Assembly: GCA_017303995.1 (NCBI GenBank)
Contig: JAFLBE010000009.1
Location: forward strand, 13,993-77,992
Origin: Bacteroidota bacterium
Lineage (GTDB): Bacteria; Bacteroidota; JABWAT01
Reading direction: 5' to 3'
Length of the DNA stretch: 64,000 bases
Part shown: piece by piece, positions 2,906 through 62,301 of the stretch
Numbering within the stretch: position 1 is the stretch's first letter
How the letters are laid out: the number at the start of each line of letters is the position of its first letter
Translations under genes and position numbers: made by a program
Notes under the pieces: model-generated
Told to the model about the DNA's origin: nothing
Seen by the model: the letters and a program-made list of their open reading frames with translations, nothing else
Database searches by the model: none

Positions 2906-4213
2906 ATGACATCCGTAAGAGTTTTGATAGGTACCTTGCTTCTGTTTACCTTTTCTTCAGGTTTTACTCAGATTTATACTGCCACAGGGCGCCTAACCCA
3001 TGCGATGATGGCAGATATGCAAAAATTAGCCACTTATAAAGTAAGTTTTGATGCATTTGGAAGTTACCTCCCCGGTACATTCAGCGGCCAGACTGGTTCC
3101 GGTGCACTTCTAAATCAGAATTATTTGGGTTTGGATTATGGCATTACCGACAATTTTCAGGTTTCAGCTATATTCAACGTTCTTCAGATGAATCATTCTT
3201 CCTCAAAGTCAACATTCAATGCGGGTCCGGTTACCCTTGGAATGAAAATTGGGAATTTACCTTTTCTTGATGGCAGAGTTCAGACCGGATTTTTAATCGG
3301 GACAAGTTTTGCTATCGGTGATCTTAATAATGTTCCTTTTTATCCGTATTACTCGGGAACTGTTGAAATTGGCATTGGTAATATTACCTCATGGTATCTG
3401 GATTCTGAAAGCCCTGAACAAGGACAAAGTCTTCACTTTAATGTCATGCTGATGAATCACAATGAAAACCAGCTTGAGATGTCAAAAATAGATAGTGTTA
3501 GCTATGAAATTCCGGGTCGGGCGGTCGGAGTAAAATATGCAATCGGATATTTATATCCTTACGGAAGCTGGAATTTCTATACTGAAGTTTGGGGCGAGTG
3601 GTTTTACAAACAACCAGACAAAGTTATGTTTTCCAGAGAATCCTATTCATATTTGAATGCCGGACTTAAATACAAATTTGCCTATTGGGAATTAAATGCT
3701 TCAGCAGATGTCCAGGTAATGGGATTTACTGAGGAAACTGATTTTGTAGCTTCAACTGCAATTGGTTATCCAAAAGTTTTTATAGAGGATAAGAATTATT
3801 CCCCTTTCTTTGTTAATCTTGGTGTAACGATGAACTTTTCTGATATTGTAAACTCCTGGATGGGTTACAGTATTGCAACATACAATTACAACCTGGTTAC
3901 GGCTGATAAATATACAGACGATCTCAGAAAAGATGACGTACTTACCAAAATTGAAATGGAATATTACCGTACCATGTACGAATGTTTCAGAAATGCAAAA
4001 CGGTTTGATGAAAACATCAAAGGAACGCTTTACATTGATTTCACAGTAAAGCCAGATGGCACTGTTGAAAATGAAAAGGTTGTCATTTCTACTTTTGATT
4101 CTGCTTTGACTTCCCAGGTCGAAGATTGTATGATTGGTCAGGTTCATGACTGGGTTTTCCCTAAAGGCGAGAAACCCTTGCGTTTTGAAATCTTACCTCT
4201 GAATTTCAAATGA
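2906..4213 (+). CDS. secreted/outer-membrane hypothetical protein with a C-terminal TonB-C-like domain
   Basis: There is a signal peptide (MTSVRVLIGTLLLFTFSSGFTQ) and the body is rich in aromatic/Gly residues, like a beta-barrel. The last ~90 aa (IKGTLYIDFTVKPDGTVENEKVV...VHDWVFPKGEKP) follow the TonB_C/energy-transducer fold pattern. The start is chosen at the internal Met after the MlaD stop. Confidence 0.4.
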   Translation: MTSVRVLIGTLLLFTFSSGFTQIYTATGRLTHAMMADMQKLATYKVSFDAFGSYLPGTFSGQTGSGALLNQNYLGLDYGITDNFQVSAIFNVLQMNHSSSKSTFNAGPVTLGMKIGNLPFLDGRVQTGFLIGTSFAIGDLNNVPFYPYYSGTVEIGIGNITSWYLDSESPEQGQSLHFNVMLMNHNENQLEMSKIDSVSYEIPGRAVGVKYAIGYLYPYGSWNFYTEVWGEWFYKQPDKVMFSRESYSYLNAGLKYKFAYWELNASADVQVMGFTEETDFVASTAIGYPKVFIEDKNYSPFFVNLGVTMNFSDIVNSWMGYSIATYNYNLVTADKYTDDLRKDDVLTKIEMEYYRTMYECFRNAKRFDENIKGTLYIDFTVKPDGTVENEKVVISTFDSALTSQVEDCMIGQVHDWVFPKGEKPLRFEILPLNFK

Positions 4214-11883: not shown

Positions 11884-12149
11884 AATAGGTTCCTATTCTT
11901 CTTACTCGTATGGCTTTTCAGAATTCGCCCCGTTTTTTGTGGTTTCTGGACTCCACGACAAAATCATTTAAAAGGCAAATTCTTTGATAGGAATGCTCCG
12001 GCGGATAAATAGATATCCTGGAAACCAAAAATTGTCAGTCTGAGTGATCCTGCTTGCAGGATTGTATCGAAGACTTTCATCTCTATTTAACTGCTGGAAT
12101 AATAGTAAATTTTTCGGATTACCTGACTTTGGATTTATAAAAGGTTTTT

Positions 12150-48537: not shown

Positions 48538-49425
48538 ATGGCTGGCGGAAGTTTATTAGCTTTACTCGATGATATTACAACCATCCTGGATGACGTCTCT
48601 GTCATGACCAAGGTGGCTGCAAAGAAAACTGCCGGTGTGCTGGGTGATGATCTTGCTTTGAACGCTCAGCAGGTCAGTGGGGTGAATGCAGACAGAGAAT
48701 TGCCGGTTGTCTGGGCAGTTGCTAAAGGTTCTTTGCTGAATAAGGTGATTCTGGTTCCGGCTGCACTTCTGATCAGCACCTTTTTGCCCTGGGCCGTCAT
48801 TCCGTTGCTTATGATTGGTGGTGCCTATTTGTGTTTTGAAGGCGTTGAAAAAGTAGTTCACACTTTTTTTCACAAAAAACATGAAACAACGAATGAACCT
48901 GCTGTTGTTATTCCGGAGTCCACAGAAAAAGAAAAAATTAAAGGAGCTATCAGAACGGATTTTATTCTTTCAGCGGAAATTATTGTGATTGCTTTGGGAA
49001 CGGTTGCCGGGGCTTCATTTGGTATCCAGGTTACTGTTTTATCCGGAATTGCTCTGGTTATGACTATTGGCGTTTATGGTCTGGTTGCCGGAATTGTAAA
49101 ACTGGATGATCTTGGTTTGTGGCTGTTAAAACCGGAGTTTAATAAGGTGTTCAGAAAAATGGGTTCTGCAATTTTAAAACTTGCTCCCTGGCTGATGAAG
49201 GGACTTTCTGTTGCTGGTACGATTGCCATGTTTCTGGTGGGCGGACAAATTATCGTTCACGGAATCCCATTCATTCATCATCTTTTAACAGATACTGCTA
49301 ATCATATTCCACTTTTCTCAAGTCTTATTGAAATGACCGGGAATGCGCTTTTCGGGATTTTGGTCGGGTTTGTCGTTTTGGGCGGGGTTATGACGATTTC
49401 AAAATTGCGAAAAAACCGGATTTAA
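48538..49425 (+). CDS. DUF808-family (YedI-like) inner membrane protein
   Basis: The N-terminus is [15 protein letters not shown], typical of DUF808, followed by multiple TM helices. Confidence 0.65.
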
Positions 49426-49448
49426 AATCCGGTTTTTTCGCAATGGGT

Positions 49449-52280
49449 TTATTTCACAACCGTCATTTTCTTTGTTGATGAAAATGAACCTGATTTTAAA
49501 GTGTAATAATAAATTCCGCTTGGCAGATTCTTTCCGTTTACATCAATTCTATAATTTCCAGCAGGCTGAAATTCATTGACTTCTGTTTGAATCAACCGGC
49601 CAAGAATATCAAAAATCTGAAGCGAAACCAAACCTGAATTGGAAAGGGAATACCTGATTACCGTTGTCGGATTGAACGGATTCGGGTAATTCTGTTCAAG
49701 CACAAATCCAACCGGATTATTCTTTCCATCAACAGAAACGACATTTGGTTTGGTGTCGTACCAGACAGAATTGTAATACCAACCTTCTTTATCCCGTGTC
49801 AAATCTGCAGTTTGTGGCTGTCCGCCGTTGTTGAAAATGAGGTTGGCAGACTTCGTCCCTTTCAAGGTGTATGTATACCAGCCATTTCCTTCATTTGTCA
49901 TTAGAACGCCCGGCCAGGAGGTTATCTGTGCATTTCCGGCATTCCACCAGTAAATATGCGGATTGGTATAATTAGCCGGTTTATAAAAATGAACCGTCAG
50001 GGAATCACCGGTTGGCGTCACTGAGGTATCATTGCCCGAAACGTTGAATCCGTAATTTTTCCCGCCATTGTTATCCCAGGAATTGTCATTGTAATTGATT
50101 ACAAATGCTACTTTGGTCACTTTTTGCGCCGGTTTGTTGAACGGACCAATTTTAATCGTTAACCAGCTTGAATCATTGGGTCCTGCAAAAGGCGTCTGAA
50201 TGGCCGGACCCGATCCGAATAAAACAGAACCAGCCGGTTGATAAACGGCATTTGGTGTTTGCCAGGTTCCGCCCACATTGTTTACACCCCAATGGAGTTT
50301 TCCGCCCTGAGTTGCACCTTTTACAGTGACCGTAACCGTGTCATCAATAGTAGGTTCAAGCGGGTAAATAACCACCGACTCATCGCCACCACCACCGCCT
50401 CCGCCCGAATTATTTCCGACCCAGACATGAAGAATAACCGATTTTTCCGTATTGCCAAGACTGTCAGTTGCTTCAACATAATAATCAAGCAGTTTTTCTG
50501 AATAACCGGTCACCTTTGCCGAATATTCTTTTGCAATCTTAATCGGCATGGGGTTCGTTTTTGGCGTCCAGGTGGTTGAAGTCATTGGAAGTGAAATCCA
50601 CTCAGAAACTTCTGAGCCGCCCGAGTAAGTTTCATTATCAGTTGAAGAGGGTGAATTCATTCCGTCATTATCGGTCCGGATTTTCAGAGTGACAGATGTT
50701 AAGCCATTGAAATCATAAGCATAGGTCCAGACGGTGAACTCTTTGGGCTGGGCAATTTCCCACTCAGTTCCACCCGGATTGTACGGCTCCCGCTGGGGGA
50801 CGAAAATGGTTGGGGCTGTCTGATCATTTGCTTTATTGATAACCGGCAGCACACTTTGAACTGCAAGATTTGAACCCCGTGTCGGATGGGAATCCCACAT
50901 TTCTGTACCATCCCAATACCAATAGTCAGAAGCCTGTGCATTCATGAGGTATTTCCAGCCAGTTTCGGTTTCTGAACTTGCCGGATTTTGCTGCTGAGCC
51001 ATCGAAACCAGATTTTGTGCGGCGGTAACGGCTGCCCAACTGTTCCGATCCGGACTGTAATTATCAACACCAGGATCACCCAGCCATTTCTTGAATTCAG
51101 GATCGCCTGCATCGGCGCCGGCCCAACTGCCTGATTCAACGTGAATGACGTCATTCGGATCTGGAGGATACGTATCCAGATAATCCTGAACTGTGGTGCA
51201 ATTAAACCGTGTCGGATTTGCTTTCACCCAATCTACAAATGCCTGAAAATTACTTTGATAATAATAGTCAGCACCACCGCCGAAATTATCTCCGTCATGG
51301 TGAAGCACAATCAGAATCGGATGTGCCGGATCGGTGTTGTAACTCTCAAGCTGACTCATCACCGTTTCATAATTCAGGGCACCAAACCCGCCACGGCCAT
51401 CTTCATTTCCAAGATAACGGTCGGTCGGGACAGCAATAATCTTTTTGGTTTCGCCGGTTTCAGGATTGGTGTAAGCGACAAAGTGTGGTTGCCGTCCCCA
51501 TTTTGCAGAGTTTTTGGTCGGGGCCCAGAGTCCGTTTAACTGAACCCAATCGTTCGGATTTGAATTGATTTGGTCGGCTTTATTCGGTTCGACGACACTT
51601 CCGCCTTTATTCCAGGGGTAACCACCGGCTGCACGGTCGAAGTGAATGTTGTCAACCAAAGCCCATTCGATATTTTCCTCTGCAAGTGCCGGAACCATCC
51701 GGTCAGCAAAAGCATTTTCCGGCGGAAAAATCCCTTTTGAATAGGCACCACCAAAATTGGTTGAAATTGCATCTTTATGCAGTTTGATCTGTTTCCTGAT
51801 GTCTTCGTACCGGATGAGTCCCATCAGCGGGTGATGGTAGCCAAATCCGATCAGATCAGTTCTTGGGTTTCCCTTTGTGGTCAGACTTTTTTTCGCATCG
51901 ATCCAGTTTTGTTTCCAGTTCTGGAATCCTTTTCCTGCAGCTTCAAGAGTGTTCAGGTTTTCGATGAGAGATCCGGTCAGACTCACCTGTGCCCCGAAAT
52001 TGGGAAGGGAAGCACCTTTTGCAACAGCATCCTTTGGCCAGCTTGTGTACGGCCCTGTCCGGCTGGTGTGAATGTTGACAACGGAATAGGAATAGGCAGC
52101 ACGATTTTCAGTTTGTATAATGGATTCATACGGCCAGTAAATGGGTTGGTGCATGTGCCAGAGAAACGCAATCTGGATGGGTGGATTTGCTGTTTCTTTT
52201 TTCTGGGCGGAAAGTTGGGCTGTAACTGTGAGCAGACTGATTGCCAGAAAAAGGATTCTGGCGGATACCGGGTTTTGCAT
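49449..52280 (-). CDS. secreted glycoside hydrolase (GH57-like catalytic domain) with starch-binding-like beta-sandwich modules and a T9SS C-terminal sorting domain
   Basis: There is a signal peptide. The N-terminal segment HMHQPIYWPYE fits the GH57 HxHQPxY pattern. A poly-Gly linker (GGGGGGG) follows. Two CBM-like modules have GWY/IFNNG/QT.DL patterns. The C-terminal ~80 aa (NYPNPFNPTTVIRYSL...GIYYYTLKSGSFSSTKKM) matches the T9SS/Por secretion tail. Confidence 0.55.
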   Translation of the reverse strand: MQNPVSARILFLAISLLTVTAQLSAQKKETANPPIQIAFLWHMHQPIYWPYESIIQTENRAAYSYSVVNIHTSRTGPYTSWPKDAVAKGASLPNFGAQVSLTGSLIENLNTLEAAGKGFQNWKQNWIDAKKSLTTKGNPRTDLIGFGYHHPLMGLIRYEDIRKQIKLHKDAISTNFGGAYSKGIFPPENAFADRMVPALAEENIEWALVDNIHFDRAAGGYPWNKGGSVVEPNKADQINSNPNDWVQLNGLWAPTKNSAKWGRQPHFVAYTNPETGETKKIIAVPTDRYLGNEDGRGGFGALNYETVMSQLESYNTDPAHPILIVLHHDGDNFGGGADYYYQSNFQAFVDWVKANPTRFNCTTVQDYLDTYPPDPNDVIHVESGSWAGADAGDPEFKKWLGDPGVDNYSPDRNSWAAVTAAQNLVSMAQQQNPASSETETGWKYLMNAQASDYWYWDGTEMWDSHPTRGSNLAVQSVLPVINKANDQTAPTIFVPQREPYNPGGTEWEIAQPKEFTVWTYAYDFNGLTSVTLKIRTDNDGMNSPSSTDNETYSGGSEVSEWISLPMTSTTWTPKTNPMPIKIAKEYSAKVTGYSEKLLDYYVEATDSLGNTEKSVILHVWVGNNSGGGGGGGDESVVIYPLEPTIDDTVTVTVKGATQGGKLHWGVNNVGGTWQTPNAVYQPAGSVLFGSGPAIQTPFAGPNDSSWLTIKIGPFNKPAQKVTKVAFVINYNDNSWDNNGGKNYGFNVSGNDTSVTPTGDSLTVHFYKPANYTNPHIYWWNAGNAQITSWPGVLMTNEGNGWYTYTLKGTKSANLIFNNGGQPQTADLTRDKEGWYYNSVWYDTKPNVVSVDGKNNPVGFVLEQNYPNPFNPTTVIRYSLSNSGLVSLQIFDILGRLIQTEVNEFQPAGNYRIDVNGKNLPSGIYYYTLKSGSFSSTKKMTVVK

Positions 52281-52440
52281 AATTCCTTACCTGTGGCGAT
52301 ATAATGAAAGGGCTTCCATTTAAATCAAAGGTAATGAAAAATTTTCAAAAGTCACAGGATGTAAATCACGTTAGGAAAGCATTTTGTTTGAATTGACAAC
52401 ACCAGAAACACCTTTGAGTTTTCTGTTGTAAACTAGTTTG

Positions 52441-52603
52441 AAGCACCATAGGTGCGACCCATTTGTAGAATCAAAATCGATTTAAGATTGAAGCTCCATC
52501 GGAGCGACCTGTACAGAATCAGGGAAAGGGTAAACAGGTCGCTGCTCTGCAGCTATTTTGAGGGATGGGTTGGTTTTCTACAAACAGGTCAGGGCTACGC
52601 CCT
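52441..52603. repeat. copy 1 of a ~160-bp structured direct repeat
   Basis: It is near-identical to 52728-52890. It contains internal inverted repeats (GCACC-ata-GGTGC; TTTGTAGAA...TTCTACAAA; GCGACCTGT...ACAGGTCGC). Confidence 0.7.
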
Positions 52604-52727
52604 TCCAAAATACCTAATAAAATTGAATTTAAATCCAATATTAGAATATTAATTACAAGAATGGTTGAGGGAATTAAGGTTAACAAAACAGATACTCACT
52701 TTAGTTTTCTGTTTTGTACAAGTTTGC

Positions 52728-52890
52728 AGCACCATAGGTGCGACCCATTTGTAGAATCAAAATCGCTTTAAGTTGGAAGCTCCGTCGGAGCGACCTGTAC
52801 AGAACAAGGGAAAGGGAAAACAGGTCGCTGCTCTGCAGCTATTATGTGGGCTGGGTTGGTTTTCTACAAACAGGTCGGGGCTACGCCTCT
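52728..52890. repeat. copy 2 of the ~160-bp structured direct repeat
   Basis: It is a near-identical direct copy of 52441-52603 with about a dozen substitutions, several of them on paired stem positions. Confidence 0.7.
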
Positions 52891-53159
52891 TCTTTTATAT
52901 CCATCCCGTCGACAACACCCATGATGATGGCGTTGGCGGGCATTTTGTCTGATCCGGTCATTTGCTTCACCACATCACCTTCCTGAGCAACCAAAACCGT
53001 ATCACCGACGCCTGCAGACGAAAAATCAATGGCGAGAAGATCTGATCCATCTGGTTTGCCGTCAAGTCCGATAGGCTGAACGATAAGCAGTTTGCTGGAA
53101 TCAAGATTGTTGTTTTTAACCGGAGCGACAACCGTTCCGGTTACTTTGGCTAAAATCAT
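52881..53159 (-). CDS. EutN/CcmL/PduN-family bacterial microcompartment vertex protein (orphan)
   Basis: MILAKVTGTVVAPVKNNNLDSSKLLIVQPIGLDGKPDGSDLLAIDFSSAGVGDTVLVAQEGD aligns closely with EutN/CcmL (MxxAxVIGTVVsT...KLLlV...dG...A.D..GAG.G..VLV). Its start overlaps the glmM-like stop (ATGA). Confidence 0.6.
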   Translation of the reverse strand: MILAKVTGTVVAPVKNNNLDSSKLLIVQPIGLDGKPDGSDLLAIDFSSAGVGDTVLVAQEGDVVKQMTGSDKMPANAIIMGVVDGMDIKEEA

Positions 53160-54523: not shown

Positions 54524-54900
54524 ATTGAAGTCCTGAATTTAAAAAGTGAACGGCACCTCTAAAAACATAACCAGTGTCATCCCGGACCTGATCCGGGATC
54601 CAGTATTGGTGTTATAAACCGAGGTTTTAGAGGTGCTATGTAAAAATACGAAAAAAGCACGGGAAATGGAGAGTTGGATTTTTGTGTTCGCTTTTATTGG
54701 GTTGGGGGGGGAATTGAAGCAGAAATTGGGTTCGGTTTTTGGGGAAAAGGTAACAATGTTTTATTCAGAATTCAAAAACCAGTAAGGTAAATTTAAATAC
54801 CTTTATGTAAAATTGACTTAAGGTTTAACTGCTAATATCTTTGTCAGTCCCGACCCCGGGATTGCTCACCCTTCTTTTTAATTTTTCAGGACATCTGACC

Positions 54901-57900
54901 ATGAAACCTTTATTTCTGGCTGTTTCATTACTAATCTTTTTTTGTCTTCAAACAAGTAATGCTCAAGTTGGTTCCCCGGGAAATTTTGAAAAGTATGAGT
55001 TTCAGCCGGAGGCATGGAAACTTCCTGACATGTCAGCGGGCTCGGTTAATGAACATGGTGATTATACAACTTCAATTGGTCTTGCCCAAATCAGTTCACC
55101 GTCTGGGTTAGCCTTTAATTTTAATATTTATTATTCCAGTGATATTCACTATGATGATGTTTCGGGTTGGCTTGGATTGGGCTGGCAAGCCAATCCGGGT
55201 ACAATTTCAAGAAGTGTAAGGGGGGATTATACACCTTTTAATGAATCAAATATTAATGCAAGAAGTTTTAGTACAAAAGATAAAAACCCAGTTGATTTTC
55301 CTTCAAATTTGAAGGAAAACCATTGGGATGGGTATTTGGATTTATTTAATGTTTCCTTACCGGATGGTACTAACCTGGAAATGGTTGTAGAAGAGAGTGG
55401 AATAACATCCGCTTCTCAAACCCATCAGTTCAAAGTATTAAACGAAAAGGGATTTTCAGTTGAAGCAAAATTTGGGCCTGTTTCTGATCGGACCGGTACT
55501 GTTTCTGTGGCACAGAATAAGTATTATGCTGATGGGATTTCTGCAACCGATTACACTTCTTTTATTATTACTGCACCAAATGGGATCCGGTATCTTTATT
55601 GCCAGCCAACTCTGGAACTGAATATTGGCTTCGGTACCAGTCAATCAGTTTATGTGAGTACCTGGAGAATTGGTGCAATTATCGGACCTGAATATAAAGG
55701 TAACATTTGGTCAGCGGATAACAATCCTACAGCAAATTCGATTGTTTTCCGCTATGGTCATGAAACCATGAATACGACGCAAAAGGTTTTCCCAAATAGG
55801 CTTTTAACTGGTCTTAGTGTTCTTGTTGGGGATAAATTAAATGCGGATTACAAATATGAAGCTATTTCTCATCTAAAATACCTTATCTCAGTTGAATCAA
55901 AAACCCAAAAATTGAGTTTGACTTATATTGATGACATTACCACTGAAAAAAATAGTCAGATTCCGTACAAGGTAACCGAAAATCAGGTTGAATCTGCTGG
56001 ATCTTGGGGTTTAATCCCAATCTTAGGCAGGAAACGAATAGATAAAATCGAAACTTATCAGAATCTGGAAAATCCCGTTTCTTCTAAGCTGGTCAAAACC
56101 GCCTCACTGGGTTATTCTATTGATTTCGGTCGTTGTTTTCTGGTTTCTTTAACTCAATCAGAATTGGAAGGAAAACAATATTTCTTTGATTATGACCTGA
56201 GCGATGCTTCAGGGGAATTTGATTATACAACAATTTGGAATTATTACAATAATAACGATGATTATGAAAGATTTACCAAGTTTAGAAATAGTCTCTATGT
56301 TTACCATCCCTATGTTGTGCCATTTGACATCAATGGTTATTATAAAACCCGTTCCCTTTCTACTGTTCCAGAATCTGATCTATTAAATGATTATACTGTT
56401 AAATCAAAGCCCAATATTGGGCAATTGACCTCAATTTCATTTCCAACAGGGAAAATTGAAAGCATTAAGTATACCAAAAAACAGATAACCAGCCAAAAGA
56501 CTTATGATTTTGGCTGGAGTGGATTTACAAAGTATAAAGTTATACCCTACAGTTATAGTGATTTAGAAAATAAATATAACAAACAAATCAGTAAAAATGC
56601 ACTATTCCATGTTGCAAAGTACTTTGAGGGAGATATTGATTTTTTTACAAAAAGCTGTCCTGAAAAAATCACAATCTCGGATGATACAAATGTTGGTGAA
56701 ACAATAAAATTATACTCCTACGAAAAACCAGTTTTTCCCGGAATTGTTCGTGAAATGCACTTCAATGACTTCACCCGCTTGATGGATGAAGGGCCAGACA
56801 ATACCTGTCTTTCAGAGGCCACTTATGGTTTGTGGGCATCCGATTGGCAAAATGGTAATGCTTCCTTTCAGAACTTTGTAAATAACCTGGAACCCCTTGA
56901 TGATTTTATAACAAGCAAGGCAACCCGACTTATGGATGTTGAAGACCGGGTTTGGTTTTCTGAGGTTTATGAGACCGTTAATGAAAAAGTTGTTAATGGC
57001 CATTTTACTCATTTTAAATCTAAGCAACCCATTGGGATTTTATTGTTTAAATCTGTTTCCGGATCTCAACAATCCGTGGTCCTCATGAGCAGTAATTATC
57101 ATTTGGCTACTCTTCAAAAAGCATCGGAGCAATATTCAATTCAGGATGGAATAAGGAATTCAAAAAAAGTTTGGGAAGAAGATGATTTTTCGACAAAAAT
57201 AAAATTAAATCCGAATGGACCCAATTTCTCCACTTACCCAATGGAAGATTTTGAAAGCCATTATAATTTTAAAAAATTACCAGAAATTGAAATAGCGGAT
57301 GGTCTTAAACTTGAAAAAACGTTCCGTTCATTTGACTATGCCGGAAACCTGGTTTTTCAGGCAGATTATACAGGTAAGGTGAACAATAGCTATCAATTCT
57401 CAATTCTTTATAATCGCTATCTATATGAAGAATCCAGTATTCCCGGTTATCAGATCCTGAAGCGAAATGCGAAAATTCAACAGATATCTGGTGTTTGGAC
57501 CGTTGATTCGTTGAAATTTATCGACCAGGATTCAGTAAAAAAATATTTGCTCCCAGTTGAGAATTTTCTGAAAGAGGCTTGTGGTCCTAATTCAGCCGGA
57601 GATAATGTAATTGAAACCAACTCAACAGGTTTCAAGCTGATATCTAATTCTATATTTCATTACAAGGATTTTGGCTCAAATAACGGTGGGTTTCAGGTTG
57701 ACTGGATTGCGAAATCAAAAGACTGGAAATGGTATCGTTACCCTAACTGGGCTCAAACCACGCTTCCCCCTGTTGATAAGTGGAAAGTTGAGTATCAGAT
57801 TACCGGCTATTATCAGTTTGGTGTGCCAAAATCTATTGATTATGGCCGATTTTCAGAATCCTATTATTTAGGAAGTAAAACAAACCCCTTTATTTCTGAT

Positions 57901-60900
57901 GATGATTCGATCTACACTTATAAAATGACAGGAAGAAAAATTACAGGGAAAAGTTTGTCATTATCTGAATATGCTTTCAGTGCCAGGTATGACGATTACG
58001 GCAGACTTATTGAGGCAAAAGCGCCAAATAAAAACATCTATGCATTTGGGTACGATGCATATCACCGGCTTGTTCACGTAAAGCGAAACGGACAAAACAT
58101 CAGAAGGTATGCCTATAATATTGCAAGGTTTAATGGGGATCCCATAAAAATTTCAACAACTGATTATACAAGTAATGTTGATTCCCTGATTTCAACAGAA
58201 TTCATGGATGGACTTGGTTTAATTCAATCTCAGAGTGGAAATGCCCAGGTTGTGATGATTTCTGAACCTGTTTTTGATAAGTCCTGGGAAGCCCTGGGAC
58301 AGACCCAAAGTCTTGTTTTTAAATCAGGAGAAACTGGATTTCAAAATCCATGGAGTAAAACTTTTCATTCTTCGTTTACCAATGGCGGTAAGTTACAGGT
58401 TGATAAATTATTTAATTACGGTGAAAACAAATCAAATTACGATCAGACCTATGCCGCAAGTCGTGGAACAGGAAAATTGTTAACTAGTGGGGGACCTGCA
58501 GCCTTTTCTGAAAGCAATTCTTCTCCATTTGGTACCAATATCGTTGAGACAGGTCCAGGTACCACCAGGCGAATGAAAGAAAAATACAGTCGATCTGTAA
58601 GCAGGAGGGTGATGGATAATTATCTTATTGCGCTCATGATTGATGAAGATGAAAGGGTTCAGTTTGCAATTTCAGAAACGGATGGAAAAAAACTTATCAC
58701 AGGGTCAACAAACCTTTCATCCTTATCCCCATCCGCTTCTGGTGGAATAGTCTCCCTGTTTAATAAAATAAACAAAACTGTCTCACCTGTTCAGAGTTCC
58801 ACACCTGTAGAAAACCCGGGAGACGGAGGTCCAGATGAAGGGGATGGTTATGATCATCCGATAGACCCGCCAGCCTGTCTGGTTGCAAGTGAACTGGGAG
58901 TAAATGGCGACCTTATTGAAACACGTGAAGTTGGTTGCGGTTCAAGTAATAATTTTGTTATTGGCGGGACAGTAACACATCTAGAACAGTTAACTCCTGT
59001 TGGAACTGTATCTTATCAGAAGTTATCGCCACTTAGTTATTTGGAGGTACAAATAAATAACCTTGATTCCGGTAAAAATCTTAATCTTTTGTGCAATGGT
59101 GAATTAATTAAAGTTTTTACGGGGCCTTTAACAGATTATGTTTTCAGGTATTATGGCGGCGAACTTACAGACAATTTTATTATTGATTACGAAACGGATC
59201 TCGGGTGCATAACCTGTTCAGATATTGTCTCATTTAAGGAGGTTAGTTTGATGAACCTAATCCCCCAAAGTGTAACTCAATACAAATATAATGATTTGAA
59301 TCAATTGGTTAATGTTATTCACCCGGATGGCAGTGAAACCCGGTATGACTATGATTTTTTTGGAAATGTGATCAGAAAAGAAACACCCTTCCAGAATGGA
59401 AAACTTAAAAACGGAACACTGCCGGAAAGTGATGTTTCAGTCAATCCTGATTTTGAATATGCGTATGACCAATATGGTCAGTTAAGAATGAGTATTGATC
59501 CCAATCAGTCGGTTGCCGGGAAAATGTCTGTTTTTCAGTATGATGGTTTTGGTCGGTTAATTGAAACTGGTGAAATGAACAGTTCAGCCAGGTTTATATC
59601 AGTAAATGCTGAAAATCCGCTTTTCCCTTTTACAACAGCTCCGCTAAACGGAACGGCAGCATTAGATCCATTTGACCGTGGTAATTTTACAGCCCCTGCT
59701 GACTATATCTGGAAACAGCAGTTTTACTATGATGGCTCAGATACCTCAGAAGGAAGGATCTTCCAGGTTAGAGAAAATGTTCCGAAACCGGATGGAACTT
59801 TAGGTACTTTTACAAAGGAAATTAAATACCGTAAGGAAGGCTGGGTTGCGAAAGTAAATACAACCTACCCCAATGGGGTCACTCAGGAGGAAGTTGTTTA
59901 TACTTTTGACCTGACCGGGAAGCCAACTTTCTCTGCCCTTTTGGTAAATGGGACGCTGAAACAGCGCCAATGGTATGAGTATTCCGCATTTGGCCAACTG
60001 ACCAAAGTTTGGTTAAGCAAAACAACAGCCAAACCTGCTTCACCAACCTTTACCTATAACTATAACCGGTTTGGACAAATCGGAAGCAAATCAATCGGTC
60101 CGATAAGTACCAAACTTTATCAGGGATTTACCGAAGAGGGATGGCTTGACTCTCTTTCAGTGTACCCCTCACTGGCTGCTTCACAAAACCCTGCAACCCG
60201 GTTGTTCCGGCTGAAGTATAATTATTACAATTCTACATTTTCCGCAGACAGGACTTATTCGCCCTTATATTCCGGAAATATCGGACAAATGCTCACCAGC
60301 CATAAGGATATAACCGATGATCTTCTGGAAACGTTTACCTATGATGGTCTCAACAGGCTTTCAGCATCCCAAACAGATAAAATATTTAAAACAACCGGTT
60401 CGATTTACAAAAACGATATCTATGGTTCATTCTATTCATACGATGTCATGGGAAATGTGCTGAATTTGCAGAGAAACTGGGACTCACCTTCACAACCCGG
60501 ATCAACAGAACTGAAAGATAATTTCATCTACCAGTATGATGGTTCCCGTTTGAGGAATCTGGTTGATTTATCTACAGTTGCTACCAATCAAAGCCTGAAC
60601 ATAAAAACCCAGGTTTCAACAGTTTCAGGCTCTTCCCTGTATCAGAATGTAGTTTTCCCAGGACTTTCTGATGGTTTTGAGGCCTATCCGACCGGCCCAG
60701 GACTTCCTTCTCCCGATTTTTCATCATCAACTTCAACCCAGGTCGGTATTTCGACTGATGCTGTTAAAGGCAAGGTTTTGACACTTAATCTATTACCTGG
60801 GAAAACCTCAGCCAATACACAGGCGGATACCATTCAGGTTGTTTTTCCCAGAACCTATCAGCTTAAGTTTGATTACAAAACAGGGTTTTATAATGATGGT

Positions 60901-62301
60901 GAAATGCAATGGAATTCAGCTTTGACCGTTTCATTAATCTGGTTGAAAACAAATAAAACGGTACTGTCAACGGCAACCCTTTTAAATGCTGTAAATTCAC
61001 CTGCCTGGCTCACCATAACGCGGTCGGTGACAGCACCAGATCAGGCTGCTTTCCTGGTCGTGAAATTCACTGCTTCAGCCACTTATACTCCTCTTTCCGT
61101 CCAGATTGATAATTTCCTGATCGAGGAAAATAATCTGGCTTATACATATGACGGAAACGGAAACATAACTCAGGACAAAATCAGAGGAATCAGCGGAATT
61201 GTTTACAACTCCCTGAATCTGCCCACCCAGCTATCCAACCTGACACAAACCGTAAATTATGGTTATCTTTGGGAAGGAAGCAGGTGGTTCAAAAAGGTGG
61301 GAACCACCATTCAGTATTATCTAAGAGGAAGCGGCGGAGAGCTTCTCGGTGAATATACAGGCACCCCTTCTACCATGAATTACCTGAATCTGTACGGGAT
61401 GGATCTTGAAGGAAAATGGCAATATGACACACCCGGTGAGTATTTTTATGTAAAAGATCATCTTGGGAATGTTCGCCAGATACTGAAGAATATCTCGGGT
61501 GCACCTCAGTTATCATCTAAAACAGATTATTACCCGTTTGGTGCGGTGATGAGAGAAACCAATTCCCTGTCACTGGCAGAATCTAAGTTTAAGTACCAGA
61601 ATAAGGAGAGAGATGTAGAATCTGGGTATGACTACTTCGAAGCCCGGATGTATGACAGTCAGCTCGGACGGTTTTTACAAGTGGATCCCCATGAATTTAG
61701 ATATCCAAATATAAGTTCATATGCAGGGATGAACAACAACCCTATAAGATACGATGATCAGACTGGGAGGGATCCTGGTGATTTATTTAAAACCAGAAAT
61801 AGAGCCGCAAGAGATTTTGGTAAAACATTTAATGGCGTATCTATTAAACAAAAAAAGGAATATGGAGCAACTATTTACACTACAACAGCTGCAGATGGAA
61901 AAACATATTACTCATATTCTAAACCAGATGTTGGCGGAAATGCAGGTACTAGTGTAAGCCCCGCCCCGGTTGGGACAACACCTGTCGCAGATATACATTC
62001 TCACGGGGGTTATGAAAAAGGTTATGATAACAATAATATTTCACCTCAAGACAAAGCTGATAATGACAAAACAAAATTGGTAGGTTATGTATCTACACCG
62101 GATGGGTCATTAAAGAAATATGATCCAAACACGAAAAAGGAAACCGTTGTAACAGAACAGTTACCAAGTGATCCAAATGATCCTAACAGGAAAAATAAAA
62201 TTAATCCAGATCAAAAAGTAACCCCTGAAGAAAAGGAAGTACCTGAGAAAAAACCAGAACCAGAAAAAAAGGAAGAGTCAGAAAAAAAGAATGGGAATTA
62301 A
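54901..62301 (+). CDS. giant secreted RHS/YD-repeat polymorphic toxin protein (RHS repeat-associated core + C-terminal variable toxin domain)
   Basis: There is a Sec signal peptide (MKPLFLAVSLLIFFCLQTSNAQ). A ~1450-aa N-terminal region is of unknown fold. Many YD repeats (YDYDFFGNVI, YAYDQYGQL, YDGFGRLIE, YTYDGNGNITQD) lie at nt ~59280-61780. The RHS core ends YFEARMYDSQLGRFLQVDP...NNNPIRYDDQTGRDPG. Then a ~170-aa tail (EYGATIY...DGKTYYSYSKP...VADIHSHGGY) is followed by a Lys/Glu/Pro-rich low-complexity end. Confidence 0.8.
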   Translation: MKPLFLAVSLLIFFCLQTSNAQVGSPGNFEKYEFQPEAWKLPDMSAGSVNEHGDYTTSIGLAQISSPSGLAFNFNIYYSSDIHYDDVSGWLGLGWQANPGTISRSVRGDYTPFNESNINARSFSTKDKNPVDFPSNLKENHWDGYLDLFNVSLPDGTNLEMVVEESGITSASQTHQFKVLNEKGFSVEAKFGPVSDRTGTVSVAQNKYYADGISATDYTSFIITAPNGIRYLYCQPTLELNIGFGTSQSVYVSTWRIGAIIGPEYKGNIWSADNNPTANSIVFRYGHETMNTTQKVFPNRLLTGLSVLVGDKLNADYKYEAISHLKYLISVESKTQKLSLTYIDDITTEKNSQIPYKVTENQVESAGSWGLIPILGRKRIDKIETYQNLENPVSSKLVKTASLGYSIDFGRCFLVSLTQSELEGKQYFFDYDLSDASGEFDYTTIWNYYNNNDDYERFTKFRNSLYVYHPYVVPFDINGYYKTRSLSTVPESDLLNDYTVKSKPNIGQLTSISFPTGKIESIKYTKKQITSQKTYDFGWSGFTKYKVIPYSYSDLENKYNKQISKNALFHVAKYFEGDIDFFTKSCPEKITISDDTNVGETIKLYSYEKPVFPGIVREMHFNDFTRLMDEGPDNTCLSEATYGLWASDWQNGNASFQNFVNNLEPLDDFITSKATRLMDVEDRVWFSEVYETVNEKVVNGHFTHFKSKQPIGILLFKSVSGSQQSVVLMSSNYHLATLQKASEQYSIQDGIRNSKKVWEEDDFSTKIKLNPNGPNFSTYPMEDFESHYNFKKLPEIEIADGLKLEKTFRSFDYAGNLVFQADYTGKVNNSYQFSILYNRYLYEESSIPGYQILKRNAKIQQISGVWTVDSLKFIDQDSVKKYLLPVENFLKEACGPNSAGDNVIETNSTGFKLISNSIFHYKDFGSNNGGFQVDWIAKSKDWKWYRYPNWAQTTLPPVDKWKVEYQITGYYQFGVPKSIDYGRFSESYYLGSKTNPFISDDDSIYTYKMTGRKITGKSLSLSEYAFSARYDDYGRLIEAKAPNKNIYAFGYDAYHRLVHVKRNGQNIRRYAYNIARFNGDPIKISTTDYTSNVDSLISTEFMDGLGLIQSQSGNAQVVMISEPVFDKSWEALGQTQSLVFKSGETGFQNPWSKTFHSSFTNGGKLQVDKLFNYGENKSNYDQTYAASRGTGKLLTSGGPAAFSESNSSPFGTNIVETGPGTTRRMKEKYSRSVSRRVMDNYLIALMIDEDERVQFAISETDGKKLITGSTNLSSLSPSASGGIVSLFNKINKTVSPVQSSTPVENPGDGGPDEGDGYDHPIDPPACLVASELGVNGDLIETREVGCGSSNNFVIGGTVTHLEQLTPVGTVSYQKLSPLSYLEVQINNLDSGKNLNLLCNGELIKVFTGPLTDYVFRYYGGELTDNFIIDYETDLGCITCSDIVSFKEVSLMNLIPQSVTQYKYNDLNQLVNVIHPDGSETRYDYDFFGNVIRKETPFQNGKLKNGTLPESDVSVNPDFEYAYDQYGQLRMSIDPNQSVAGKMSVFQYDGFGRLIETGEMNSSARFISVNAENPLFPFTTAPLNGTAALDPFDRGNFTAPADYIWKQQFYYDGSDTSEGRIFQVRENVPKPDGTLGTFTKEIKYRKEGWVAKVNTTYPNGVTQEEVVYTFDLTGKPTFSALLVNGTLKQRQWYEYSAFGQLTKVWLSKTTAKPASPTFTYNYNRFGQIGSKSIGPISTKLYQGFTEEGWLDSLSVYPSLAASQNPATRLFRLKYNYYNSTFSADRTYSPLYSGNIGQMLTSHKDITDDLLETFTYDGLNRLSASQTDKIFKTTGSIYKNDIYGSFYSYDVMGNVLNLQRNWDSPSQPGSTELKDNFIYQYDGSRLRNLVDLSTVATNQSLNIKTQVSTVSGSSLYQNVVFPGLSDGFEAYPTGPGLPSPDFSSSTSTQVGISTDAVKGKVLTLNLLPGKTSANTQADTIQVVFPRTYQLKFDYKTGFYNDGEMQWNSALTVSLIWLKTNKTVLSTATLLNAVNSPAWLTITRSVTAPDQAAFLVVKFTASATYTPLSVQIDNFLIEENNLAYTYDGNGNITQDKIRGISGIVYNSLNLPTQLSNLTQTVNYGYLWEGSRWFKKVGTTIQYYLRGSGGELLGEYTGTPSTMNYLNLYGMDLEGKWQYDTPGEYFYVKDHLGNVRQILKNISGAPQLSSKTDYYPFGAVMRETNSLSLAESKFKYQNKERDVESGYDYFEARMYDSQLGRFLQVDPHEFRYPNISSYAGMNNNPIRYDDQTGRDPGDLFKTRNRAARDFGKTFNGVSIKQKKEYGATIYTTTAADGKTYYSYSKPDVGGNAGTSVSPAPVGTTPVADIHSHGGYEKGYDNNNISPQDKADNDKTKLVGYVSTPDGSLKKYDPNTKKETVVTEQLPSDPNDPNRKNKINPDQKVTPEEKEVPEKKPEPEKKEESEKKNGN

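Follow-up and report, generated by a model that had tools for sequence, protein, structure and literature searches.

What is the pair of near-identical repeats that lies between an EutN_CcmL gene (52881-53159, minus strand) and a GH57 gene (49449-52280, minus strand) in the 64-kb window, by which we mean the whole stretch of DNA analysed here? A preliminary description of this DNA named three candidates: a tandem pair of cis-regulatory RNA elements in the leader of the GH57 gene, a duplicated small RNA gene, or a MITE-like repeat. We argue that the region is, in all likelihood, a REP-type DNA repeat cluster made up of two tandem, gene-less, non-autonomous composites that are REPIN/BIME-like and MITE-like in character. 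The last of the three candidates was essentially right: each composite is built from four REP-like units, and such units flank a Y1 transposase gene elsewhere.

The repeats themselves are readily delimited. The gene on one side is of the GH57/CBM26/T9SS-tail kind, and on the other a phosphoglucomutase (PGM) gene lies upstream of EutN. A repeat search, with which pairwise alignment agrees, found direct copies at 52403-52601 and 52689-52887 (199 nt, 89% identity, spacing 286); the composites proper occupy 52443-52603 and 52729-52889 (161 nt each, approximately 89-91% identical, 286 nt apart). Both the direct repeat and its position between EutN and GH57 had been described correctly, with the correction that copy 2 overlaps the end of the EutN gene, covering its final two codons and TAG stop. 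Between the copies, the 163-nt core delimited earlier differs at 14 positions. Several of these substitutions had been said to fall on paired positions, which holds for 3 of the 14, all in the stem of the outermost hairpin (among them an A-T pair replaced by G-C, which is compensatory, and a pair that became G.T); the remaining 11 lie in linkers, in loops or outside units, and the example that had been cited as paired, CCATCGG versus CCGTCGG (52498/52784), is a hairpin-loop base. The MRPICRIKI... ORFs called in this region are, as had been supposed, probably artefacts of the repeat. Across the window, blastn with the element found no further copy, Tandem Repeats Finder reported nothing at the period and identity of the repeat, and element probes of 18-22 nt matched only the two copies (0.00-0.02 matches expected from shuffles). 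No further units occur elsewhere in the 64 kb, and the repeats form a single cluster.

Each composite consists of four units of approximately 28 nt, two per strand, that converge on a central loop. The unit is a 5-bp GC-rich hairpin with a GTA-type loop, directly followed by the tail GACCTGTTTGTAGAA. In a half composite, an outer unit whose tail is full is joined by a 22-nt linker to an inner unit whose tail is truncated; the other half is its mirror image on the opposite strand. In composite 1 (13+15 / 22 / 13+7 / 21 / 7+13 / 22 / 15+13 nt), the plus-strand half is formed by the outer unit D1 (52443-52470; GCACC-ATA-GGTGC followed by GACCCATTTGTAGAA, a CA variant of the consensus tail) and the inner unit C1 (52493-52512; GCTCC-ATC-GGAGC followed by GACCTGT). 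The 21-nt central loop (52513-52533) is the slot that holds a Y1 transposase gene of approximately 460 nt in related loci. Beyond it, on the minus strand, are the inner unit B1 (52534-52553; GCTGC-AGA-GCAGC followed by GACCTGT) and the outer unit A1 (52576-52603; AGGGC-GTA-GCCCT followed by GACCTGTTTGTAGAA). Composite 2 has the same layout, with D2 (52729-52756) and C2 (52779-52798) on the plus strand, a loop at 52799-52819, and B2 (52820-52839) and A2 (52862-52889) on the minus strand.

The overlap with EutN falls on the hairpin of A2 (52877-52889, minus strand; GAGGC-GTA-GCCCC), whose GTA loop and following G give the EutN TAG stop (52881-52883) along with the final two codons. The EutN-like protein ends ...GMDIKEEA, as against ...GMDLAD in a related metagenome-assembled genome (MAG), and its Pfam domain (residues 1-84) is intact. 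Since its last codons and stop are encoded by the repeat hairpin, the insertion rewrote the EutN C-terminus. What was duplicated extends beyond the composite. A 40-nt flank at 52403-52442, which lies outside the element in other genomes, was co-duplicated with composite 1 and has its partner at 52689-52728, next to composite 2; an AT-rich spacer of 85 nt (52604-52688) is present in single copy. Spacer, composite and flank together make up the 286-nt period, of which there are approximately 1.7 tandem copies.

Comparison with related genomes shows that the window element is an insertion. Two MAGs (GCA_041911795.1 and GCA_023151185.1) carry the gene order PGM-EutN-GH57-DUF808-DnaB-UDG, with an EutN 79% identical to that of the window, and in both the EutN-GH57 spacer is 129 nt long and contains no unit. 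Nucleotide homology between the window and these MAGs ends at 52899 and restarts at 52211. More distant relatives likewise do without the element. In those (L149-L151, compared with window positions 48538-52280), PGM-EutN is followed directly by AmiA-like-DnaB-UDG, from which it appears that GH57 and DUF808 are themselves a lineage-specific addition at the same junction, made before the repeats.

Homologous composites are found at unrelated sites in other genomes. A strict pattern (inner stem plus TGC), run on one genome per species, returned 20 chance matches and one true homolog, a single copy in the MAG Bacteroidetes bacterium BAC1 (contig L006) that is 70% identical and lies between thioredoxin-like and TatD-like ORFs. 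Contig L058 carries a tandem pair of composites with a period of 283, between trpF and pntB and with different flanking DNA, and in contig L084 a composite follows yet another gene. The homologous composites of these three contigs, with 70-74% identity and the same hairpin set as in the window, occupy non-syntenic sites. The hpD stem GCACC/GGTGC is common to all four contigs with related composites, and the hpA, hpB and hpC stems are each common to most of the four. A variant four-unit composite, with the hairpin GTTGC-NNN-GCAAC and a tail ending ...ATATTTGTAGAA, lies just upstream of an annotated IS200/IS605 tnpA on a plasmid of the cultured Bernardetia (Cytophagales; NZ_CP147018.1). Copy number per genome looks low: the strict pattern matched one site in BAC1, the sole matching genome, and there were two match places on the Bernardetia replicon, maybe representing one palindromic site. 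The window composite had no match in the plasmid collection, nor had the two-unit pattern described below any match in viral contigs. The preliminary description had proposed many dispersed copies bearing target-site duplications as the mark of a mobile family, and by eye no short direct repeats border the window copies or those of L006 and L058; to our knowledge, Y1/HUH elements make no target-site duplications, and hence the proposed test does not suit this class of element.

The units belong to a family that is widespread in metagenomes. A scan for pairs of phased units (GACCNNTTTGTAGA followed after 24-44 nt by GCGACCTGT) found the pattern in at least 120 contigs, and the consensus read from the 120 loci listed is A-GCNCC-GTA-GGNGC-GACCTGTTTGTAGAA. 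These loci were chosen for two phased units, which inflates the share of pairs among them. When units were anchored on the tail only, 344 unique units were obtained, and in 84% of them the tail is directly preceded by a hairpin of 4 bp or more, the stems comprising more than 25 distinct sequences. In the 127 units with which the 5-bp stem was analysed, 91.4% of stem cells are paired and 128 cells show a double change, compared with 30 +/- 4.5 in shuffles (0/500), a signal that collapses once the register is slid. The hairpin of the unit is thus upheld by compensatory change. In 82% of units an A immediately precedes the stem on its 5' side, and GTAG is found twice, once across the loop and 3' arm (C-GTA-G) and again in the 3' tail TTTGTAGAA. 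Mismatches within units are more often G.T than A.C (45 versus 27), a weak bias for naming the functional strand. Units on the same strand keep a tight spacing of 49-53 nt, and on either strand units may form direct arrays or pairs that diverge or converge.

The commonest metagenome layout is divergent, with a truncated and a full unit on one strand, then mostly exactly 13 nt (14 cases), then a full and a truncated unit on the other strand (for example, L121 330-480 and L137 330-480). In L113, L116, L118, L121 and L125, an extra conserved AATCGGACACTAnTGTTA-like motif, recognised by eye, flanks the truncated units on their outer side, and in L121 does so at both ends. This could represent two ends joined together or a portion of some larger element.

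What links this family to transposition is the gene found with it. Although the 120 listed loci were picked by DNA pattern alone, 25 contain a Y1 gene, whose ORF starts MANTYTQIY... and in many cases comes right after a unit pair. The protein (152-153 aa) matches Pfam Y1_Tnp (PF01797, E 5e-24 to 7e-25), passes the NCBIfam model for IS200/IS605 TnpA (NF033573; 67-72 bits against a cut-off of 55) and falls below that for the REP-associated tyrosine transposase (NF047646; 33 bits against a cut-off of 80); its nearest solved structures are the ISDra2 and IS608 TnpA proteins. Sixteen ORFs of 144-154 aa carry the motifs PDH[VIT]H, (N/Q)WQ and Y(I/V)xNQxxHH, and by this signature the predicted Y1 protein matches subclass 1.2, an assignment made by motif and not by phylogeny. 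The clade is large, with at least 7,914 protein clusters at E <= 1e-30, and its members' names include Ignavibacteria and Bacteroidia at NCBI and RayT at JGI. Many members sit on contigs shorter than 2 kb, and hence repeat-flanked Y1 genes probably often break short-read assemblies.

The arrangement of units around the Y1 gene is that of the window composites. Most units upstream of the gene share its orientation and most downstream are opposite, and tails are truncated in the gene-proximal units but full in the distal ones, which matches the layout in the window. Moreover, the gap between converging inner units is bimodal, being either 3-33 nt (19 cases, including both window copies) or approximately 440-700 nt (21 cases), the size of the Y1 gene. 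From this shared full/truncated layout and the bimodal gap, it follows that the window element is a Y1 cassette without its gene. The 64-kb window itself contains no Y1 gene.

If the element is a cassette minus its gene, could it be an immobile relic, that is, a resident Y1 cassette that lost its gene through an in-place deletion and was then duplicated locally, without ever having been a mobile gene-less element? The architecture would be as expected, the window holds a single cluster, and the copy number elsewhere seems low too. Nevertheless, we consider this unlikely, as composites with overlapping hairpin sets occur at non-syntenic sites in at least four contigs, and spread of the composite as a unit is an easier explanation for these than four independent identical deletions. 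Nor do the 19 gene-less composites, with loops of 3-33 nt, show by eye any resemblance to the Y1 gene.

A structured non-coding RNA, in which the fold would be the selected feature of a tandem cis-regulatory element in the GH57 leader or of a duplicated sRNA gene, is less probable again, to the point of being very doubtful. The nested inverted repeats on which this reading was built are real: an inverted-repeat search found them, and the folds of both strands are more stable than those of shuffles (z = -2.7 to -5.9), that of the minus (sense) strand most so (z = -5.9 and -3.9) and with a continuous 15-bp outer stem that includes two G.U pairs. In addition, the small hairpins covary strongly, and the strand on which G.U pairs can form has the same sense as the gene that ends immediately upstream, in the window as in L006, L058 and L084 (only two or three of which are informative). 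However, the long-range stems of the preliminary description, TTTGTAGAA/TTCTACAAA and GCGACCTGT/ACAGGTCGC, are the tails of opposite-strand units. When 17 gene-less composites were aligned and their pairs counted, three of the four local hairpins covaried at 4-5 of 5 pairs and the fourth, hpC, showed a double change in 1 of 5, but the long-range stems were near-invariant, with a double change in 0 of 7 pairs of P2 and 2 of 15 pairs of P1. What these stems contain is an almost invariant 15-nt sequence with almost no compensatory change, and the linkers and loops, the central loop included, keep their length and not their sequence. The covariation data are no independent support for a selected long-range RNA fold; the large nested fold is accounted for as a geometric by-product of inverted copies of a conserved tail. 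The same pattern of conservation fits a DNA hairpin and tail recognised by a protein.

Other observations also stand against the RNA candidates. The Rfam search that had been suggested, run over the whole window with Rfam 15, gave no gathering-threshold match to the element on either strand, and at E <= 10 the region 52250-52950 yielded two chance matches only, lying outside the element or at its margin. Related MAGs lack the element at the orthologous EutN-GH57 junction, the genes that neighbour it in other genomes are unrelated, and the freedom of its units to lie in any orientation and their tight association with a transposase gene are at odds with an RNA of this locus. A promoter scan, which does not cover Bacteroidota promoters, found no sigma-70-type promoter. 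The window's sole gathering-threshold match in Rfam is a full-length DUF805 RNA (RF03081) at 11894-11961 on the minus strand, at 70.6 bits.

It is scarcely credible that the host selected the element to terminate transcription of the PGM-EutN operon or to stabilise its mRNA, with no connection to transposition: the element does start within the stop codon of the upstream gene, and a terminator-like scan gave 6 matches against 0.6 expected, but what the scan picked up was simply the 5-bp hairpins of the units, the sense strand has no U-tract after the outer stems, relatives do without the element, and both the Y1 association and the conserved 15-nt tail would be left unexplained. As a secondary effect, such a role is compatible with the REP-type cluster proposed here. 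Transcribed along with EutN and PGM, the element would form a stable structure at the 3' end, through which the mRNA could be stabilised or punctuated, and a passive effect on the upstream mRNA is possible, the orientation of the G.U-competent strand being a weak hint of it. Two further readings were discarded. One was CRISPR-like, on account of hairpin repeats ending ...TTCAAAC, but the would-be spacers are 22-nt linkers that are similar between copies, and the units lie on both strands. The other, an attC/integron reading, fell with the absence of R'/R'' core sites.

If the region is a repeat cluster of REP type, how does it compare with repeats already described? It resembles the REP/BIME/REPIN sequences of Proteobacteria and their RAYT partners (TnpA_REP; REPtrons; PMC3116915, PMC3733652, PMC6006769) in its short, GC-rich, extragenic hairpins with GTAG. 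REP families form inverted dimers with 20-100-bp spacers, and REP clusters are re-iterated in tandem together with flanking DNA (PMC3733652). Here, likewise, inverted pairs are able to form one long hairpin, with two plus and two minus units converging in the EutN-GH57 spacer, and re-iteration in tandem has taken in the flank. REPs adjoin the 3' end of the upstream ORF, and their GTAG can supply its TAG stop (PMC3733652), as the loop of A2 does for EutN. As in a REPtron, though in related loci only, a Y1/HUH gene is flanked by inverted units and has gene-less copies elsewhere.

There are also clear departures from REP-RAYT. The partner protein is of class 1 (IS200-like, Y---Q--HH) and not class 2 (Y---NP), and with this motif, and with a score below the NF047646 cut-off, it does not represent a canonical RAYT system. 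The stem has just 5 bp, conservation resides in a 3' tail of 15 nt, GTAG is placed in the loop and tail rather than 5' of the stem, the ends are doublets with a phasing of approximately 51 nt, and the 64-kb window shows no high copy number. Canonical REP families are usually species- or genus-specific, whereas the tail is nearly identical across contigs named for Ignavibacteria and for Bacteroidetes/Bacteroidia. The element is therefore a variant of known repeat kinds and not canonical REP-RAYT.

With IS200/IS605 elements the related loci, though not the window, share a Y1_Tnp transposase of approximately 150 aa whose nearest relatives of solved structure are from ISDra2 and IS608. Further points in common are small subterminal hairpins, no sign by eye of a classical target-site duplication, and miniature gene-less derivatives, which in IS200/IS605 are named PATEs (palindrome-associated transposable elements). 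The hairpins at IS200/IS605 ends lie on the same strand and are not inverted repeats, however, and compared with that group (subclass 1.1) the ends here are mirror images on opposite strands, with two phased units per end. Correia, ERIC and RUP sequences are MITE-like intergenic palindromic repeats that are tied to DDE-type transposases and make target-site duplications. As with the element, their size is approximately 130-160 nt and their ends are inverted; they are transcribed together with their neighbours and form long hairpins, as the element would. It is unlike them in having no flanking short direct repeats by eye and a Y1 enzyme as partner.

How might the cluster have formed? By analogy with the known chemistry of its family, the Y1 enzyme would act on single-stranded DNA, binding there to the small hairpins and to the conserved tail, and would move or amplify gene-less composites in trans. 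The 286-nt tandem duplication may have arisen by local re-iteration of the element together with adjoining DNA, in the manner published for REP clusters.

The closest published counterpart of the Y1 protein is subclass 1.2 of the TnpA_Y1 family, with a signature of approximately 148 aa, DH[IV]H, WQ and Y---Q--HH (Quentin et al. 2018; PMC6006769), which the proteins described here share (approximately 148-153 aa, with DHTH also occurring in place of the HuH motif DH[IV]H) along with Bacteroidetes hosts. Subclass 1.2 has been reported as restricted to Bacteroidetes and Cyanobacteria, low-copy, and without REPs or IS200-type ends (PMC6006769), whereas the genes in these loci are flanked by hairpin units. 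Searching the literature, as far as it is searchable, brought to light no relevant report of the tail sequence and no relevant follow-up on subclass 1.2. Our more tentative proposal, which we would place a little short of an even chance, is that the subclass 1.2 Y1 proteins of Bacteroidota and Ignavibacteria may own an undescribed REPtron-like system, characterised by phased doublets of 5-bp hairpins with the near-invariant tail GACCTGTTTGTAGAA and giving rise to gene-less four-unit composites, two of which the window would contain. If true, an IS200-type transposase would have arrived independently at a REP/REPIN-type lifestyle, with a recognition sequence conserved across contigs that carry Ignavibacteria- and Bacteroidia-named Y1 proteins and a variant tail in Cytophagia.

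For the window, our findings remove a riboswitch/sRNA candidate from the annotation, and the repeat cluster explains two probably spurious ORFs, a 600-nt spacer, and the odd C-terminus and stop codon of EutN. For the enzymes, a very large Y1 clade that has been published as repeat-free is now tied to a specific repeat family. This yields a concrete substrate with which to test the role of the Y1 enzyme, namely a 5-bp hairpin with a 15-nt tail, and a second lineage for studying the transition of IS200-type transposases to REP-type systems.

Some minor observations concern the surroundings of these repeats. In L139 (approximately 3039-3090, minus strand), there is a tail-only tandem array in which GACCTGTTTGTAGAAC is repeated with a 16-nt period and without hairpins, adjoining normal units and a Y1 gene. 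Interspersed among the tandem composites of L058 is another palindromic repeat, unrelated to them (CCACCCCTCCTTGAAAAGGAGAGG-like), at 2270-2300, 2545-2590 and 2825-2870. L006 has other direct repeats of 49-70 nt with the hairpin AGACGCGATGAATCGCGTCT, at 3119-3460 and 2283-2352, upstream of the thioredoxin-like ORF. Finally, beyond the PGM gene of the window lies an ORF of 2,486 aa (54841-62301, plus strand) that by eye is RHS/YD-repeat-like, with a variable C-terminal tip.
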